Shown: piece after piece, positions 5,220-64,000 of the stretch
Position numbering within the stretch: the first letter of the stretch is position 1
Layout of the letters: every line of letters begins with the position of its first letter
Source: Eledone cirrhosa
Taxonomy: Eukaryota
DNA: 64,000 bases
Assembly (NCBI GenBank): GCA_964016885.1
Contig: OZ024740.1
Span: 147,870,001-147,934,000 of the forward strand
Reading direction: 5' to 3'
Made by a program: the position numbers and the translations under genes
The notes under the pieces: generated by a model
Database searches by the model: none
The model's input: only the letters and a program-made list of their open reading frames with translations
What the model was told of the DNA's origin: nothing

Positions 5220-5483
5220 TTACATGAGTTCATCATCATCTTCATCCATTGATGGACTGACGGGATTTGATGACATCATGGGATCACCACTAACAGGTGA
5301 ACTGTCTTCATCCATAGCACTGCTACCGACAGAGGAGAAACCGTTATTGACTTGGTCCAAGAGCAAATCTGTATCAGATTTTCCACAAGGTGGTGTGAGA
5401 AGATCTGCAATGACTGCCAAGCTACTAGCATCATTAGGGAGACCTGTTGATATTCCATGAGACTTGCACAACATTTCCAAATG
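5220..5483 (-). CDS. MITF: MiT/TFE (MITF-like) last coding exon: end of leucine zipper and acidic/Ser-rich C-terminus
   Basis: Acceptor TTTTACAG|CAT at 5484/5483, phase 0. Encodes HLEMLCKSHG...DEDSSPVSGDPMMSSNPVSPSMDEDDDELM*, similar to MITF ELEMQARAHG and SPVGVTDPLLSSVSP. TAA at 5222-5220. Confidence 0.93.
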   Translation of the reverse strand, partial: HLEMLCKSHGISTGLPNDASSLAVIADLLTPPCGKSDTDLLLDQVNNGFSSVGSSAMDEDSSPVSGDPMMSSNPVSPSMDEDDDELM

Positions 5484-7038: not shown

Positions 7039-7186
7039 CTGTACTCTTAGCATAAGCTTTCTGTTGTTTGTCTCAGACAATCTATTTTTTTCTTCAAGGT
7101 TGTGCATTTTATCTTGATCTTTTCTAAGTTTTCTTATATAGTCCACGGAATTCTTTAAAATGGAACCTTTATTCTGTCGGGTGTCA
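7039..7186 (-). CDS. MITF: MiT/TFE exon: loop, helix 2 and leucine zipper
   Basis: TTTCTTTAG|T...GTACAG|GTAAGC, 148 nt. Encodes [49 protein letters not shown], compared with MITF [49 protein letters not shown]. Confidence 0.97.
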
Positions 7187-7844: not shown

Positions 7845-7920
7845 GGATCATTGTTCTTTGGTAGGAGTGTTCCAAGTTCCTTAATTCTGTCATTGATATT
7901 AAACCTTCGTCGCCGTTCAA
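7845..7920 (-). CDS. MITF: MiT/TFE exon: basic region and helix 1
   Basis: TTTTTTAG|TT...GATCC|GTAAGT, 76 nt. Encodes (I)[24 protein letters not shown](P), the diagnostic MiT bHLH sequence. Confidence 0.98.
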
Positions 7921-8562: not shown

Positions 8563-9449
8563 CAGCGTGCGGACGACAGCTGTTCGCAATTTTCAACTGC
8601 TAATTTTATGCAAATTTTTTTTACTTCCGTTATCACTCTTGTCTTCATAAAAACAGTGACTATATTTCCATTATTTATTTTCAGAATAATTGATTATGAA
8701 TAATTTTGAACCTCCAAATTTGTAGAAGAGACACGGAGTTCTTCTTGGAATCCGCGCCGGGAGTACAAATAAGGAAATTTCAGACTTTCTCAGCGTCAGC
8801 AGGAGAATGGTGTCTCATTCAAAGACGTGCCCAGAGTCATGCAGACAAAGTTTCCAGCGACAACATTGGTCTTAGGTGTCGTCAGCAGTCAAGGTGACGT
8901 CATGCCACCTCACTTCTTCCCTGAGGGCCTGAAGCTGAACGCCGATGGCTACATCCGCGTTCTGAGCGAGGTAGTAAAGCCCTGGATTGACCAGGTAGCT
9001 GCAGGTAGGCCGTACGTGTGGCAGCAAGACTCAGCGCCCTGCCATACCAGCCGAAAGACCCAAGCCTGGCTGTCAGAGAACTTCGTCGACCACACTTCAC
9101 CTGACATCTGGCCTCCCAGATCGCCCGACTGCAACCCCCTTGACTTCTTTGTGTGGGGCGCAGTGGAAGGAGACACCAACAGATCTAGCTGCAATATGAA
9201 AGATGATCTGAAGGCCAGGATCACAAGTGCCTTTAGCGGCCTAAGTCGGGGGACAGTGACGAAGGCCTGTAGCCGGTTCCGAGGCCGCCTTGAGGCCATC
9301 ATCAAAGCCAATGGCGGGTTTATCGAGAGTGATCGAAAGAACAAGTCATGGAGACAAACTGACCCAAGTTTGATAAATATATCTTAAAAAGTAAAACTAG
9401 TGTTATTTTTTCCTAGACAGTAATCTTGCGAACAGATATCGTCCGCACC

Positions 9450-10069: not shown

Positions 10070-10244
10070 TTAGATTGTGGTTATCCTTTTTCTGTCGGTC
10101 TTTTGCCCACTGTCTTGCCTCATCTTCATTGAGGAATTGTGGTGGATCAGCTGCCTTAATCCGAAAAGCATTTGGTACAGAGCTTATTGATTTATTATTG
10201 TCTGTATGTTGCTCATAGAGGTTCAAAACACTTGGTTGAGGAAG
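10070..10244 (-). CDS. MITF: MiT/TFE exon: pre-basic region and start of basic region
   Basis: TTTTCTATTCAAAG|CTT...CTAA|GTAAGT, 175 nt. Encodes LPQPSVLNLYEQHTDNNKSISSVPNAFRIKAADPPQFLNEDEARQWAKDRQKKDNHNL. The split codon A|TT joins to IERRRRF. Confidence 0.93.
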
Positions 10245-17093: not shown

Positions 17094-19747
17094 TATAAAG
17101 ATCGATCGATCGATCGATCGATCGAGAAAGAGAGCGAGAGAGAGAAAGACTTATATGTATGTAGAGGCAAATGTAATGCAACTAGACAGAACTAATAATG
17201 ATTAAAAGTTAATGCCGTCATTACAGGATAGCAAACAATCAACTATTTGAAATATAGCTGAAGGGAGAGAGTTTAGATAGAATTAGCAGCAAGTTGAAAG
17301 AAATTTTACTTATCCTTTGAAACATGCAGGTAAGCCAAGCATGTCTGTAAGTTGAAATATCCAGCAAGATTAAGAGAAGTTAGATAGCATTGAATTTGTT
17401 ATGGAGGTTTGATGGGGAAGGAGAGTTAGCGATCTGATGCATTCAGTCCAAAATTCCCAATGATAAGAAGAGCAGTAGTCTTTATAAATATTGTAAATAT
17501 ATCTCTATATATATATATACACATGCATACCAAATGCTATAACTATGTATCATAAAATGTATAAAATATTATTCAGGTGGCACACTAAACAAGAAATATG
17601 TTTTATTCAGCAATTTAATAATAATATTCATTAAGCTGCAAAGTTACACAGTTAGTTACTTCAATTAAAGTATGTTAGTCACATTACTGTTGACCAAAAC
17701 AAAATCGGTGAAGTATACCCTGAGCACATGTGGACCCTGAGCATCAGCTGGAACTTGTGGACACTTTCTTTGAGGATATACACCTTGTGTTATTCTAATA
17801 TCTACAGTAATTATATGTTCACCTCCAAGAACACCTAAGTCATTAAACTGTTTGATACCAAATCCCTTTGTATGAAATGTAACCAACCATTTTAAAGGTT
17901 TCCTATTTGAATTAAAATCTTTCAACCTAATTTAATATAAGAACCTTGTGTTAAGTTATGTAACAAATACTATCTTAATAAATAAATAAATAATTTTAGT
18001 AAATCCCTCTGAAATATTTCCTTAATTGATTGAAATACTGTGTATTTTATTGTAAATTCAATAACAAAAGAGTTAAAACATCTACAACATTTTCTAATAT
18101 ATTTGAAAGACTTGATGCTATCCCTGTTGTAAGAATAACAACATTTTGAAGTAATCCACAATTTAAGCAATCTTTTCTTTTAATCCTTATTTTAAATGTA
18201 GTAATCAATATGAAGCTCATAAAAATAGTGTAGTCCATGTAATAACATTGGTTGTTATTACTTTTACAGGTTACATTATATGACCTGAAGAAAACTGTAG
18301 AGTTTCTTCCATATTTGCAATTACCTAGGATAAATTCTCTGCAGGGCTGGCCTTAGAAGTCCAAAAGGGTGTAACTTATATATTGCAATTTGTTGTTGTA
18401 TGTACTTGACGAGGTGGTAGTAGATTACTCTAGCAAGGAGCTATCTTAGGTGCTGAGCCCAATTCGGAGCAATTGATCTAATTGGCTTAAATCTTTCACA
18501 GCTTCACAGCAACAATCAGTAGCAAGACTTTGTATTATATGCCTGTGTCTGACTGTAATTCATGTTTATTAATACCAGTTGATTGTGCAGATATCCACAC
18601 AGATTTGTCTCTATCTATTATACTTTCAAGTAATTCATGAATTTTATTTGGGTAATTGAATTATCAGAAGAGAATAGAGCACTGGTATGGACTACAATAT
18701 AAAGTTATAACACCATGTAGGTGAAGTAATGATTTCTAAGTAGTTGTCAACCTAATATTAATATGCATATCAGTACGCCATCATGTGAGCTATATGCTAC
18801 ATCAATATAGCTAAGAGGTATTCAATTTCAGCAAAGCAGTGACCAAAATTAAACAAATTTAATGAGGATTTAACAAAACCTGACATTGCAGTAAGCACCT
18901 GTTTTATGTTGCTGAGTTTATTTCACGATATGAATATATATGATTGAAACAAATATTCTTTAGATAACCAAATTAAGCCTACATTAACTTCGGCAAATAG
19001 AGCAGTATCGATACAATATAGATGTGTGTCATTATCATTAAAGCTAGAATATATTTCATTAATTATTTCCAATAATTTTATTCCAGAGTAAACTGTCATA
19101 TTATTGAGGAGATTATAATATAACATTACTAACTTATAATAAATCAACTTTTTTCAAATTCTACAGCTTTCCTTACTTATAAGTATGTATGATTTATAAG
19201 TATAATGTATGATTTGAAATAGTGCTTACCTTTAGAATCATATTTTCCTAATATCATATTAAATAATCATATAATTATAATGGTATTTTCTAGAGAATTA
19301 CCAAGAGTGTTATTCATTTGAATAATATATTAAAGACACTGTTCTATATCATTGAGAGGAAAGTATTAGGGAGAGTTTAGAATGCGTGGCAGGAATGAAT
19401 AGTTAAATTAGAGGGAGCAATCCAAAAGATAATTTTTACCTTATTAAAAACTCTCGTGTCTGGCTGAGAGAATGCCTTGTTAAAATCAATGAAGTGTGCA
19501 TCCATATGTTCCCAATTGTTAATCACATGTGAAGGTCCCTTTAAATATATCAATATACTTGTATCTTAGGTGGATTGAGAAAGGAAGTTTATGAATTAGA
19601 GTTTTGTTTCCAGTTTAACACTTCTTGAAATTTGGCCAATATTTTTACATATATCGCAGTTTTGAATGAACATACTAAACAGTATGAACAATGCTGAAAT
19701 ATTTGAATCCAATTGAAATTTCTAGCAAACTTACAGTTTTCATATTT

Positions 19748-26570: not shown

Positions 26571-26675
26571 CGTTGATGTTAATTGTGTCAGAGTTGGCTC
26601 TATAAGATTCAAGTCATTATCTATGGTAGCATCAACAGATTCTAGACTGATTCCTTCCGGAAAAATATTGTCCAT
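26571..26675 (-). CDS. MITF: MiT/TFE exon: acidic activation-domain region
   Basis: TTTTAG|ATG...ACG|GTAAGG, 105 nt, phase 0-0. Encodes MDNIFPEGISLESVDATIDNDLNLIEPTLTQLTST, compared with MITF [32 protein letters not shown]. Too short to appear in the ORF track. Confidence 0.92.
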
Positions 26676-33727: not shown

Positions 33728-33988
33728 ATCTGTAGGAGCAGGATTTGCTACAGCTGGTAAAGGTAATGGACTCTCTGGGTTAGTCAATGGAGCACTGGCT
33801 GTATGGAGAACATCACTCTGATCAGTAATATTGGTACCCTGAAGTGCCACCATATTTGGCATGGACTGTGTATTTCCTGGAACACTTGTAGATCCAGATA
33901 CTTGCTTTTCATGTAAGAAGAGCTGAATTTGCTGGTTTTGCTTCTGTTGGATATGGTATTTAGTAGGGTGTTCAAGTTGAGTCTTGAC
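33728..33988 (-). CDS. MITF: MiT/TFE exon: N-terminal conserved LENPTKYH block and SAP..SP phosphosite region
   Basis: TTTTCAG|GTC...GAT|GTAAGT, 261 nt, phase 0-0. Encodes [26 protein letters not shown]...QSMPNM...SAPLTNPESPL...PTD, compared with MITF [26 protein letters not shown]. Confidence 0.95.
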
Positions 33989-45181: not shown

Positions 45182-45507
45182 ATGGATGTGTTGAGAGAGA
45201 AGCCGTGTCTGAGAGGCATACATTTTAGTGTGCGGGAGAGGAGACTGCGATGGTATGGACATGTGATGCACATGGAGGATGACCGATGGGTGAAGAAGTG
45301 CCAAGAAATGCCAGTTGAAGGAAGACGTAGTAGAGGAAGACCACGAAAAACATGGGCGGAGGTGGTGAGAGCAGACCTCAGATCGCTGAAGCTCACGGTG
45401 GAGATGACGAAGGACCGTGACAAGTGGAGAGATGCTGTGCTGAATAAGACCCGTCCCACCCTTGCAAGCAGGGAAAAGCGGACGTAAAATGATGATGATG
45501 ATGATGA
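45182..45507 (+). mobile_element. Young 5'-truncated RTE LINE 3' end
   Basis: Open frame [35 protein letters not shown]...DRDKWR, followed by a (GAT)n tail. Confidence 0.9.
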
Positions 45508-46184
45508 TATATATATATACACACATATATATACATATATATATATATATACATACATAAATACATAAATATATACATACATATATACATAAATATATAC
45601 ATACATATATACATAAATATATACATACATATATACATAGATAAATACATATATACATAGATAAATACATATATACATAAATACATATATATATATATTT
45701 ACATAAATACATATATATACATATATATGCATACATATATACACATATATACATATATATGCATACATATATACACATATATATATATATGCATACATAT
45801 ATACACATATATGCATACATATATACACATATATGCATACATATATACAGGTATATGCATACATATATACACGTATATGCATACATATATACACGTATAT
45901 GCATACATATATACACATATATACATATATATGCATACATATATACACGTATATGCATACATATATACACGTATATGCATACATATATACATGTATATGC
46001 ATACATATATACACGTATATGCATACATATATACACATATATGCATACATATATACACATATATGCATACATATATACACGTATATGCATACATATATAC
46101 ACATATATGCATACATATATACACGTATATGCATACATATATACACGTATATGCATATATACATACACGTATATGCATATATAC

Positions 46185-46216
<32 letters not shown>

Positions 46217-46456
46217 TCATATATAAGTCCAGAATTAGCCGTCGAAACGGCTTGAGCTCAGCTGTCGGGGTCTTACTGGTTCCTATTCATATATATATAT
46301 ATATATATTCATACATATCTATATATATATACATATATATTATACATATATATATATTCATATATATATATATATATTCATACATATCTATATATATATA
46401 CATATATATTATACATATATATATATTCATATATATATATATATTCATATATATAT

Positions 46457-46488
<32 letters not shown>

Positions 46489-46490
46489 TC
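45508..46490. repeat. (TA)-derived micro/minisatellite, including about 20 copies of a 22-bp unit
   Basis: ATATGCATACATATATACAC(G/A)T repeated at about 45725-46180. It is the source of the long YICM ORFs. Confidence 0.92.
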
Positions 46491-46790
46491 ATATCATCAT
46501 CATCATCATCATCAACGTTTAACGTCCGTGTTCCACGCTTGCATGGGTTTGGACGGGGGTAGTCCCACTTGAGGCAAGAGTGATTGTCTTGCTCGCATAG
46601 GACTGTCTGGCAGGTTTTCTACAGTTGGATGCCCTTCCTAACACCAACCACATTTACATATATATATATACATATATATACATATATATACATATATATA
46701 CATACATATCTATATATATATATATACATATCTATATATATATACATATCTATATATATATACATATCTATATATATTATACAATATATT

Positions 46791-50829: not shown

Positions 50830-51510
50830 TAATCAATTCATAGTGTCTAGTAATCCAAAGGCTCTTAGTTCCTCCATTGAAAATACTGACATGTATTTTC
50901 TAAGCTTCAATGACACCAAACTACATTACTGTGGAATATCTACTTCAACACGTTTACCTCTACAGCCTCCTGCCTTCCATCACACAGCCCCAAGATACTG
51001 GAATTCCTCCACCTGTTTCAGTGGATCTCCACTGCACAGGCTTCCTTGAGAGGATGAGTGGCTCAGTCTTCACAACACTAATTTTCATTTGGCAGCAAAC
51101 TTATGGAGTCATGTCAGAGATCACCTTCTGGTGAGTTAGAATATTCCATGTCATCTGTAAATTTCAGCCAATTGATCCTACACCCACCAGTCTCCATACT
51201 ACTTCCAACTCAGCTGCACATGTCAATCCTGTCTATGAAGATATGAACAGGAGTCTGAAAACCACATTGAATGATTTTGACTTAGCACCAAACACAAATA
51301 GTAGGGCATTTGTATAGAGATATCAGCGCAACAAGAAGTTTTCAATCAATTCCCTACTCCTGCCGAACCTTAAACAACAGGTCCTGTGGAACATGATCAT
51401 ATGCCTTTTTGAAGTCTACAAAACAAGCATACGCCTCTTAGCAATTCTCTCATGATTTCTTAAAGATCTGGGCCAGCATGAATGTTTGGTTGGCAATAAT
51501 GTGTCCATAG
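50830..51510 (-). mobile_element. RTE-like RT remnant
   Basis: Minus strand ACFVDFKKAYD (about 51400-51430) and LKFTDDM (about 51147-51168). Confidence 0.75.
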
Positions 51511-53113: not shown

Positions 53114-55877
53114 AGCTGATCTTTCAGACTTTTACAAAGCGCTAAGAAGATGAGGTTAATATAAAGAATGATTGCTCATGTGCAAGATGCTATAAAAAAG
53201 CTTATAAAATAGGGTGAAATCCCTTAAAGACTGAAGTTTCAATACTTTAGTTAATTAATCCATGATGTGACCAGATGTACTTATATACAAATGTTCAAAA
53301 GCAGTGCCTCTTATTGCTCATATGTATTTATGCATTACTCTCTCTTTCTTTCTCTCTCTCTCTGTATGTGTGTGTGGTCTACATCCAAAAGTCATTTGCC
53401 ACTCATCTGTCTGATGGTCCAAGTGTACATCTTCACAACATTATTATTATTAGTCAGTTGTGAGATAGTAGAGGTATTCCATTCATGACAATTGTTTCTT
53501 TAGTTTAACAAGAAAATCTCCAGTTGAATCAAATGCATTACTCTAAACTATGGAACATGCATCTTATTCAAGTGTTGTTTCCTATTAATACTCTTTATGC
53601 ATGCATGCATCTATGTGTGTGTATGTGTGTGTGTGTATGTAATGATGTATGCATGTAAACACACGTGTATGTTTCTTTGTGTGGTTGTATATAAATATAT
53701 GCATTATCAAACATTATCATCATCTTGATTTAATATCTGTTTCTTCCAAAATAAACATGTAATGGCTAAATATAGAACAACAGATCTCACAGCACTTTAA
53801 ATTACAGTAAAAAGATATATATGATGAAAAAATGTAACATTACAATTTAATTTAGATTAAAAACAAAATTTATTTAGGAAACTGTTTCACCTAAAATTTT
53901 GTTTTTTATTTATTTGATCTTAGTTATATATTTGTTTGAATGTGTTAAGCATTGTGATGACATTGTGTCTGAATTTAGCTTATTTTACAGTCTTTTTAAC
54001 CCATTCCTTACCATATTTCTTATGAAATCCACTATATTTCAACTAATTTATGAAGAATTTGGATGGATTTACTCAACATTAATTATTTTATCATTAAAAT
54101 GGTATCTGTAGCATAAAAAAATTATGCTGGCAGATTTTAATTTAGATAGGAAGATTTTAAAATGGGTGGGCTAATATCATAGAAGCAGAGGCAGTTTTGG
54201 CCAGGTTGGCTTCAATATAGCTTAATTTTTTTTTTCAAACATTTCAGAAATCTGTTGCTTTATTAGGTTTCCCTATGGATCTCCACTAGATATGAATACA
54301 AGTAAATAAATGACTCCTGGATCATATGCAACACATTGAAAGTCAATGCTTAGCTTCTATTTTATAGTATGAAACAGAGGGGAGGTACATCTCTCTCTAG
54401 AATGGTTGCCAGTCCATCACAAGTAATAATATACTTCAATGATTTGATACATATTCTAGAAAATCTAGGTAAACTGAGGCAGTATAGCACTAAGAAACAC
54501 AATAAGAATTAAGAGTATTATAACAAACCTTCTGATTAGCATGCTTGTGTTTGAAACAGCTTGACAAAAGTTCTTACATAAAATCATGTTGGAAGTTTTT
54601 TTAGATAAATATAAACACTTTAAAACACACAGCAATATATAGGGGCAGTTTCAAGCAGTTTGATATCAAAAGGGTTAATGCCTTATCTACTTGACCATCT
54701 GACATATAAAATCTCACCTATCTTCTTGAAAAGAGGACACTTTGAATAATGTAACCAGATATATATGGTACCAAGGAGAATGATAGGATGAATGGATAAA
54801 ATGCTTTTCCAAATATTCAAAGAAGAAAATTCTTAAGATATAAATATGTATCTCTTACACCTACTGAGATTTGATGCTAATTCTTAACATCCAGCATTTA
54901 TTTAGTAGAAAATATCTAAAACTTGATTTATTAATTCAAATGTTTATACCATCTTTACTAGTAGACTTGTGATTTTGAACATTTCCAGTAAACTAAAGAC
55001 TTGAATTTTTAATGTGATGCTGTCATAGTTCTGTTTTGTACTTTTCAAGAATGTATTGCTAATGAGATACATGGCATTAAAAGTGAAATTAAACTGAAAC
55101 AGTTCTTAAAGACCAGAGAAATTTGGAAACTAACAAGTTTATTTCCATGTAAATTGTCCATTAAAGATAATAATTCATATAAATTATTCTTATATTTCCT
55201 ATTCAGTGTTTCTATACTTTTGGTAATGTTTATTTGAAAAATCTATAATTAATCAAGATTTTGCTTATATGGTAACATAACAAATCTGGGTCCCATTTTG
55301 TCTAGATCATATACAATGTACTGCTAATTCCATAAAATAACTAGTTTATGTGTGTTACTATCCCACTATGCATTTTCTGAAAACTTCAAAATAACAAATA
55401 AAGAAATTTTATAGAATTATATCCACTATTCAATTATACTAATATTCTTTTAAATTCAACCTTATTCAATTACTTCTTCTAAAACAGTTTAAACCCATAC
55501 ATGCTTTAGAAATAGACATGTTCTCTGGGTGGAACATTTGGAATTTTACTCTGAAGTTTAAAGGTACTTCAAAATTAAGAGAAAATTTACCAGTATTCTG
55601 AGTTCTATATAAAGTAACTAAGAATGTAATGATTGACAGCATCTATTATTTCTGTATTCTAACTAACTGTGATACATGAGGTATGATTATTTAGATTTTA
55701 AATAAAACTTAAGTAAACCAAAGAAAATCATTAATCTACGTATTATACACATTAATGAAAAAAAGCGTAATAAAATCAACAACACCAAGTTGATGTCAAT
55801 ATATTTTCATGAAAATATTCAAGACAAAAAATGCAAAAAAAGAGAAACAAATCATAAGAAAATACAAGAACACCTAC

Positions 55878-56031
55878 GAAAGGCTCAGTGGTCCAAGTTG
55901 CATATTGGCAACTAGGATAGCAGGCATATTGGTTAGAATCACATGAGTAAGGCCAGTTGTGGTGGCACCCTGGTTGGTTATAGTAGTAGTTGTAACCATA
56001 GTCATGAGTACTATGGTTCACCATCATACCA
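55878..56031 (-). CDS. Candidate alternative first or cassette exon of the MITF-like gene (Tyr/Cys/His/Asn-rich peptide)
   Basis: GC-richer island with a pyrimidine tract and AAG acceptor at 56032, ATGATG at 56027 and a phase-0 donor TTC|GTAGGT at 55877, in frame with exon 33728-33988. Encodes MMVNHSTHDYGYNYYYNQPGCHHNWPYSCDSNQYACYPSCQYATWTTEPF. No homology recognised. Confidence 0.45.
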
Positions 56032-56633
56032 CTTGAGGGAAGAGTGTGAGGGTAAGAAATGGTAAAATATAATATCCTCTTGTAGAAAATGGTAACAAAT
56101 TATATCCTTATGCTTATTTATCACATATATTTTGAGTATCTAGTTCAGGAAGACGTAGAGGCAATGTATAAATTTGAGTATATACAAAAGGAATTAAAAC
56201 AAACTTTTAAGTAAATGTTTAAGTTCCAATCTTAAAATTGATTTGTTGCTACTTTTTTTGTGCTCCTGTTGTTTAGATTATTTTCTTTGCTTTTTATTTT
56301 GGTAATCAGTGTTTTAATGGGGACAGATATTTATCCCATAAAATTTCCTGGTATTGAAAGACTGATGTTCATAAAATAAAGTGTTCTTTCAAAAGAGAAT
56401 ACAACAACAGTTTGTGTAAACAACTTGTAGCGTTCATTTTGGAAACTTCCAGAAAATGGAAGATTACCATTGGATGTAATGAATCTTTCCATGAGCTTTT
56501 TTTCATCCAGATATTTATGTGTCAAATCACGAACTGGTCATTTTGTAATTAGTTGTAATTCCAAATATTTTTTTAAATCCCTAAAGTCTTCATTGGTGGT
56601 TTGGGACAAAATACTATACATCCACATGCATAT

Positions 56634-62767: not shown

Positions 62768-64000
62768 TTGCACGCACGTGTGTATGTGTGTGTGTTTGTG
62801 TTTGAACACAAGAGACTAATTTGTTAAGGTGCTAACACTAACTGACATTTATACTGATAAGTAATGAAGAACTAATGTTCCACAAAAGCAAGTCCCAGAC
62901 TCTGTAAACCATTAATATTAAAACAAGAACAATTACACTAACTTAACTACTTAAGTAAACATAACATAATCATTTATATGTAGACAACTTCAAAACAAGA
63001 AATATACTATTTTACTTACTGTTCAAATGTTACTGTGAAATAAGTTTCAAAAACCCTTGCTCATAAAAAATTAAAATTACATACATTTCTATCTAAATAA
63101 TTGAATAAAATACTTTTTGTAAAACAAAAAAATTGCAAATAGAAATTGTACAAATTCACAAAACAGGCCACACACATACGTGCATGTCTTTATACATACA
63201 CACATTTATACACATACACACACATTTATATATTGTTGATGAGACACCCACATGTCAACTATTTAACTTTTTAAAAGCCATTTTTTCTATATCTCTCCAA
63301 GGGAAGGGGACGTTATGACAAGTGTATGTAAAGTTTTTTGTCAATGTACAAATATGAAAACTTAGTTTCTATTAAAAAAAAATTCCATGAATATTCTCTC
63401 TATTGTCACTCAACACTGAAGAACAATACAATCTCTCATCAACTAATTGCTTACCGTTTCTCTCTGTGAAGTGTTTGCTTGATTTGTAGAATTGACTTCA
63501 TATAGCAGCAATAACATACTGTTAGGGCACAACAATATTTTGATTTTTACTTCTTTTACAGTTTTCTTTTCAGTATGTTTTCTTACCCAAGTCAATAATA
63601 ATTTCACTGTCAATAAATAATCAATTGTGCAAGACACAGAATAATTAATACATTCCTATTTTTGTCTTTTTCTTTTCTTTACTCATCCCATAATGAAAAT
63701 ATCAGGCTGGTTCCATTTAAAAAAAAACGAAAAAAAAAAACAAACTATATATAGAAGAAACCATTACAATTCTCACATAGTCTATTTACTTGGAAATGAT
63801 GTGTAAAATATAATAATTTCAGCAAACAATTGACTGTGATATAAAACTAGAAAGTATTCTGTCCAAAGGTACATTTTTCACAAAAACAAATAGGTTTGCC
63901 AAACCCACCCACCCAACTTACTCATAACTTAATTTCTCACTTTCTATCTCTTTCTTGTATGTGTGTGCGTGCAATGTATGATGTGTGTACATATATATAC

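Follow-up and report, generated by a model that had tools for sequence, protein, structure and literature searches.

A conserved candidate first exon in the Mitf/TFE gene of Eledone cirrhosa, with a layout resembling that of vertebrate MITF-M

Introduction

In human MITF, exon 1M is spliced straight to exon 2, and other isoforms reach exon 2 via exon 1B1b (accessible text of PMC7470386 and PMC6672050). According to the available portions of two TFEB studies, TFEB's first 30 residues are required for Rag binding and suffice for it, and when they are missing, S211 phosphorylation and 14-3-3 binding drop and the protein is constantly nuclear (PMC3575543); residues 2-18 are placed in the Rag clamp, with a second contact formed by residues 76-84 (PMC9931586). 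TFE3 carries a beta-TrCP-type degron at S47 (PMC12852735, in part). For MITF itself, the accessible part of one source reports no direct in vivo evidence that the N-termini give tissue-specific activities (PMC6672050).

Invertebrates have a single MiT/TFE gene, on which cell-type programmes depend as well as starvation-driven lysosome control; an isoform lacking the Rag helix illustrates how the two roles could be combined in one gene. The accessible text of two reviews that compare MiT/TFE between organisms does not refer to an invertebrate isoform of this kind (PMC9363479, PMC7815692), and no paper on a cephalopod Mitf isoform was found in a search of largely open-access literature. The subject here is a 64,000-nt stretch of the Eledone cirrhosa genome (contig OZ024740.1, positions 147,870,001 to 147,934,000; hereafter the window), in which a first-pass annotation made from the letters alone had proposed a novel N-terminal exon as a possible invertebrate analogue of MITF-M.

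Organization of the Mitf/TFE locus

Mapping of the protein P0001, which contains the PF15951 N-terminal domain and a bHLH-zipper and matches the TFEB and MITF chains, revealed one MiT/TFE locus with nine coding exons in exon-by-exon correspondence, listed here in window numbering, continued beyond the window for exons 1 and 2:

117220-117102: exon 1, from the P0001 mapping; ends in phase 2
73201-73000: Rag-type exon 2, 202 nt; reads NRTNLKLQLMKQQ; phase 2 to 0
33728-33988, minus strand: common exon 3 (VKTQLEHP), aligning to VQSYLENPT of TFEB and VQTHLENPT of MITF
26571-26675, minus strand: common exon 4, 105 nt, from the P0001 mapping
19440-19538, minus strand: exon 5, included or skipped in the annotated Octopus isoforms X1 and X2
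10070-10244, minus strand: exon 6, start of the basic region, with S-S-V-P aligned to an S/N-S-C-P stretch
7845-7920, minus strand: exon 7, basic region and helix 1, from the P0001 mapping
7039-7186, minus strand: exon 8, helix 2 and zipper, from the P0001 mapping
5220-5483, minus strand: exon 9, coding part to the stop, from the P0001 mapping

The VKTQLEHP exon shares 99% identity with annotated Octopus MITF proteins, and the S-S-V-P of exon 6 aligns to the S/N-S-C-P of TFEB and MITF, in the region of the 14-3-3 site. The R-x-x-L-K-x-x-L-M segment falls wholly within exon 2; the first TFEB Rag-contact segment matches this exon and the second (residues 76-84) matches exon 3. Rag binding by cephalopod exon 2 is putative, judged from these alignments, and the genome holds two Rag-family loci. 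Exon 2 lies 9 kb past the window end, beyond position 64000, where the first-pass annotation had suggested that a Rag-binding exon be sought after finding none between the candidate and the VKTQLEHP exon, and both points were borne out; the pattern it had used (SR..L.QQLMR) would miss the exon even inside the window, because the exon has a different reading, as listed above. Since exon 2 runs from phase 2 to 0, skipping it produces a frameshift.

Exon 1 encodes DSGIDD, which we take to be a beta-TrCP-type degron. First exons from molluscs, insects, corals, and fish likewise contain DSGI or ESGI/V, and the DSGI-type motif of exon 1 is likely an ancient degron. A third first exon, of the TVIVVTK..LLRSLL type and common to many molluscs and Lingula (P0017, P0110, P0043, P0225, P0023), had no match in the window or the 120 kb upstream; when 170 distinct N-termini were searched against the same region, exons 1 and 2 only were recovered. 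Of all the exons, the in-frame cassette exon 5 is conserved least (11/34 versus P0007). An RRSS serine cluster present in TFEB, MITF, TFE3, and Lingula is missing from the C-terminus (window 5220-5300), as it is from the aligned snail and clam rows. The Acanthosepion pharaonis MITF model (P0015) starts within exon 3, at a Met, and has probably been truncated.

Sequence features of the candidate exon

The candidate exon falls within intron 2 (39 kb), with the Rag exon 17 kb upstream of it and exon 3 21.9 kb downstream, and comprises the following features:

56028-56498, minus strand: likely 5' untranslated part of the candidate exon, from contigs extending past 56031
56032-56033, minus strand: AG proposed as acceptor; phase-compatible with exon 1, with no sign of use
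56022-56027, minus strand: tandem ATG; the nearest stop lies 26 codons upstream, with no in-frame start in between
55878-56027, minus strand: coding part, 50 codons for a Tyr-rich N-terminal peptide, from frame, contigs, and conservation
55872-55877, minus strand: phase-0 donor GTAGGT, where the contigs of runs X7, X14, X16, and X18 depart from the window
33989-55877, minus strand: intron removed in the alternative transcript, 21,889 nt, from junction letters in runs X7, X16, and X18

The 154-nt segment (56031-55878, minus strand) has a GC content of 44% versus ∼28% in its surroundings and is directly preceded by an AG at 56033-56032. A tandem ATG ATG at 56027-56022 opens its 50-codon frame, the second ATG having A at -3 and G at +4, and the frame ends at a GTAGGT donor of phase 0, from which it would continue in register into the VKTQLEHP exon (33988), 21,889 nt away. 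The GC-richer segment, tandem ATG, open frame, and donor are thus all present as first described, as is the frame with the exon 21.9 kb downstream. The 50-aa peptide contains 9 Tyr, 4 Cys, and 4 His and no Lys or Arg; it had no match in Pfam and only one weak match (0.77), which was disregarded, in the ESM Atlas.

On sequence alone, the candidate is only suggestive, and as evidence weak: outside one AT-rich tandem array, the same intron holds two other ATG-to-donor frames of at least 50 codons. These non-repeat frames of similar size, which also end at donor-like intronic sites, would favor a chance frame or a repeat-derived intronic segment, but that reading has a negligible probability given that the candidate is single copy, spliced in three organisms, and conserved as protein; the junction contigs described below refute it. 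The candidate is raised above chance by its conservation and by the splice junction that contigs of other organisms contain. A match to a repeat family had been named as a possible refutation, and both DNA and protein searches of the 3.0-Gb genome gave one match, the exon itself, with no tandem repeat found at the exon; in the absence of further genomic copies, a repeat or transposon fragment was rejected.

Repeats occur elsewhere in the window. An AT-rich tandem array of ∼1 kb with a 22-nt period (45507-46493) yields long spurious open frames, and a 40-nt element (54640-54680) was matched by dozens of unrelated contigs in four runs (X7, X14, X17, X18) and is a dispersed repeat common to these organisms. 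Two weak translated matches, at 8854-9018 (plus strand) and 51387-51428 (minus strand), resemble remnants of a Tc1/mariner transposase and a LINE reverse transcriptase, respectively.

Splice junction in transcriptome-type contigs

The run search covered 24 runs, 18 of which were guessed to be RNA (five coded organisms, 10 studies; none on record as RNA); five of these 18 (X7, X14, X16, X17, X18) and one of the other six (X22) were compared. The 18 come from organisms other than the window's own and are without tissue labels. In all five transcriptome-type runs, one contig covered the candidate coding part at 91-94% identity with no gaps, at low contig depths (4.8-13.7), whereas X22, intended as a DNA control, gave only five short pieces of <90% identity and no real cover.

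The junction evidence consists of loose contig ends, the candidate exon and exon 3 being too distant for one alignment. In X7, X16, and X18 (organisms B, D, and E), exon 3 letters follow the donor in frame: the post-donor letters agreed with the start of exon 3 (33957/9-33986) at 26/28, 27/30, and 28/30 positions, respectively, versus at most 21 at the next best place in the window and 5-6 in the window's own intron. The junction from 55878 to 33988, which the first-pass annotation had proposed as a check, is therefore present in contigs of three other organisms. The X14 contig departs at the same donor and continues for 28 further letters; the X17 contig stops near the end of the candidate exon and contains no junction. 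In X18, 366 letters of contig follow the donor, a number equal to exons 3 and 4 together; beyond the first 30 letters the agreement is one of length, and the end of these two exons coincides with the fork at which exon 5 is included or skipped. The X7 and X14 contigs end 30 letters past the donor and those of X16 and X18 continue; the 30-letter endings fit a 31-letter-word graph in which a second path enters exon 3, and there is a weak hint that the alternative isoform is dominant in certain libraries, whereas in others it occurs alongside the canonical form.

Coding constraint and conservation

Within the candidate frame, seven of the 11 listed differences were silent, versus an expectation of 17-22% (p 0.0007-0.004); none makes a stop and there are no gaps. 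The listed differences omit those near alignment ends, and sites common to related organisms were counted once. A HMMER search of 1.84 billion representatives with the candidate peptide returned four matches, one of them real (P0270); the other three are repeat proteins and were rejected as compositional noise. A word-indexed protein search for the peptide among longer proteins gave no candidate. P0270 is a read-through frame of a distant relative, equal in length to the candidate, with MM at its start and 39/50 identical residues, and V-R follows EPF, as expected from a donor read through. Its flanks share only 1/26 and 2/30 residues with those of the candidate. The conservation sought by the first-pass annotation was thus found, both in P0270 and in the gapless alignments of the five runs.

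All 12 aromatic residues are kept in P0270, versus 27/38 other residues (p 0.03), and three of the eight Cys/His residues have changed. A Cys/His metal finger was rejected on these changes and on the lack of a Pfam match. The Tyr-, Cys-, and His-rich composition noted at first is present; judged from this comparison (3/8 Cys/His changes versus 0/12 for the aromatics), the aromatic pattern matters more than the Cys/His richness. The 78% identity resembles the values for exons 1-3 (82, 76, and 74%) when Octopus is compared with the cuttlefish-like P0007, which suggests, at the level of sequence, that the candidate exon predates the octopus-cuttlefish split.

A conserved segment could instead be a poison exon, in which the Rag exon joins the AG and a stop after six codons leads to decay, or a conserved non-coding RNA. 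The phase-0 frame from the AG does stop at codon 7, and there are many upstream ATGs; the silent-site excess and lack of gaps in the MM frame, the 39/50 identity, which breaks off abruptly at MM and at the donor, and the finding that no contig among the runs compared joins exon 2 to the candidate make both versions highly improbable. We regard the segment as almost certainly a real, conserved coding exon.

First exon or internal exon

The contigs of X7, X14, X17, and X18 cross the AG at 56032-56033 unbroken into upstream DNA, extending past 56031 to 56043 in X7, X17, and X18 and to 56094 in X14. Further along in the X17 contig, and in the expected order, comes 56378-56498, a block that is conserved and single copy in the genome. 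In X7, the junction and 312 letters upstream stand in one contig, and the first 30 of these letters agree with the window's upstream DNA at 22/30 positions; the 30 upstream letters of X18 agree with the window at only 12/30, yet resemble those of X7. These loose letters of X7 and X18 match neither exon 1 nor exon 2, and among the four contigs passing the AG none joins any upstream exon to the candidate. An AG does exist where a plausible acceptor had been claimed, but four runs' contigs pass through it into upstream DNA, and for this reason the candidate is probably a first exon, although contigs cannot show a transcription start.

That exon 1 joins the AG at 56032, making the candidate an internal exon mutually exclusive with the Rag exon, has some points in its favor. 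Exon 1 ends in phase 2, and the Rag exon (202 nt) and the candidate counted from the AG (154 nt) both run from phase 2 to 0, so the join would be in frame, at odds of one in three by chance; a pyrimidine tract precedes the AG, and the alignments of relatives extend 11 nt beyond it. The product would retain the degron-like motif and be without the Rag helix. This arrangement is decidedly unlikely in view of the unbroken passage of the four contigs and the loose letters of X7 and X18, which are from neither exon 1 nor exon 2; in addition, a phase-2 acceptor needs an AGN codon, and P0270 has none within 18 residues of MM.

For the preferred first exon, a putative promoter of its own in intron 2 is likely; a start within the intron is the simplest way to drop the Rag exon, because skipping that exon shifts the frame. 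The 593 nt upstream contain nine ATGs, and scans for CRE and E-box motifs near the exon were not above chance.

Predicted properties of the isoform

The best explanation, which we consider probable, is a conserved Mitf/TFE first exon with its own promoter, giving an isoform that escapes Rag-mTORC1 retention and is mostly nuclear. Transcription would start upstream of ∼56500, or at scattered sites nearer the ATG, and translation at the tandem ATG, yielding a protein of ∼425 aa with exon 5 or 392 aa without it. The isoform would lack the N-terminal helix clamped by Rag GTPases, mTORC1 would not phosphorylate its retained 14-3-3 site, and the DSGIDD degron-like motif of exon 1 would also be missing. 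With both controls lost, its activity would follow the promoter, which would then set its level, as for MITF-M. The 50 residues are likely a disordered, aromatic-rich activation or partner-binding segment and not a metal finger.

Escape from mTORC1 is likely by analogy. The candidate peptide shows no likeness to the Rag-binding helix, and the isoform keeps the S-S-V-P stretch aligned with the 14-3-3 site; as a point against escape, the second Rag contact of TFEB is retained by the common exon and hence present in the alternative isoform. The first exon could also be real and act mainly as a tissue promoter with a new activation segment, with little escape from control and a location still governed by nutrients or other kinases. 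Consistent with this, the peptide constraint (78% versus 74-82% for exons 1-3) exceeds what a start codon needs, the isoform retains its 14-3-3-type site along with an S-P export-type stretch, and MITF-M itself is exported after ERK and GSK3 phosphorylation (PMC6672050, in its accessible part); yet TFEB becomes constitutively nuclear on helix loss or a point change alone (PMC3575543 and PMC9931586, available text), and we regard such limited escape as rather unlikely.

The isoform would probably act in a single cell type that constantly needs lysosome-related organelles. Pigment cells are favored because Mitf regulates tyrosinase in abalone mantle (PMC13544226, in part), an assignment that is possible but tentative, the alternatives being a phagocyte or another type; MiT/TFE is described as a conserved phagocyte regulator across bilaterians (accessible text of PMC13186322). 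Since squid chromatophore pigments are ommochromes (PMC11682086, in part), the ink gland or eye is as plausible as the chromatophores. The candidate exon can be sequenced, probed, or knocked out separately, with the housekeeping form intact, so that cephalopod pigment-cell specification becomes directly testable.

Comparison with known systems

The candidate peptide was absent from the 14 cephalopod-type proteins examined, which include all but one member of the main cluster, and none of the Octopus or Argonauta annotations examined describes the exon. Of the 93 cluster members with the common-exon motif, 11 were without the Rag pattern; 10 of these were internal starts or fragments, and one was Lingula anatina RefSeq isoform X7 (XP_023933076.1, P0213), a predicted model in which a private N-terminus sits directly on VKTRLENPT with no Rag segment. 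Like the candidate, the private peptide of this isoform is Tyr-rich (10/36) and contains Cys, although the two peptides align no better than shuffles (p 0.31; E 0.24). Aromatic-rich alternative first segments also occur in Lingula isoform X3 and in oyster and scallop Mitf models, where Tyr makes up 9-26% of the private N-termini versus 3-6% in DSG-type exon 1; unlike the candidate, these segments join the Rag exon and so keep Rag control, and none aligned significantly to the candidate or above shuffles. Private N-termini rich in Tyr are thus found repeatedly among Mitf models of brachiopods and bivalves (P0213, P0216, P0131, P0145, P0030, P0268, P0018).

Among vertebrate forms, TFE3-S resembles the candidate in that an internal promoter removes the N-terminal phosphodegron, but it keeps the Rag-binding domain, is cytosolic when fed, and adds no new peptide (PMC12852735, accessible text). 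Zebrafish Mitfa and TFEC are M-type or without a TFEB-like N-terminus, and are separate paralogous genes rather than an isoform of a single gene.

Vertebrate MITF-M is a close likeness: its private coding exon also follows the Rag-binding exon (1B1b) and joins the VQTHLENP-type exon with nothing in between. The candidate lies between the Rag and common exons, has its own start codon and a frame in which constraint begins at MM, lacks the Rag helix, and is spliced directly and in frame to the common exon in other organisms (X7, X16, X18) rather than the window's own. The analogy first proposed thus stands as to a conserved in-frame exon at the place of exon 1M without a Rag segment, and falls short as to the acceptor. 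The private peptide is 50 aa in the candidate versus 11 aa in MITF-M, and there is one MiT gene in the window's animal versus four in vertebrates. The HMMER search gave no sequence link between the candidate and MITF-M, the compared proteins including no MITF-M sequence. By analogy of layout, the candidate would work like MITF-M; it is not classed as MITF-M proper.

In cephalopod Mitf as in human MITF, the Rag exon cannot be skipped in frame, so the shared position of the candidate and exon 1M may reflect constraint. Convergence rather than descent is favored with modest confidence, and old inheritance stays an alternative because the Lingula X7 model has the same layout. That coleoids evolved their own MITF-M, in which a second promoter and an aromatic-rich exon give an always-on pigment-cell regulator (chromatophores, ink gland, eye), is a speculative extension that we find doubtful; if true, cephalopod pigment-cell fate could be approached through this exon in an isoform-specific way, and, taken together with Lingula X7, a downstream start that drops the Rag exon would be a repeated solution across animals. 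The candidate bears in this way on whether the MITF-M design is a vertebrate invention.
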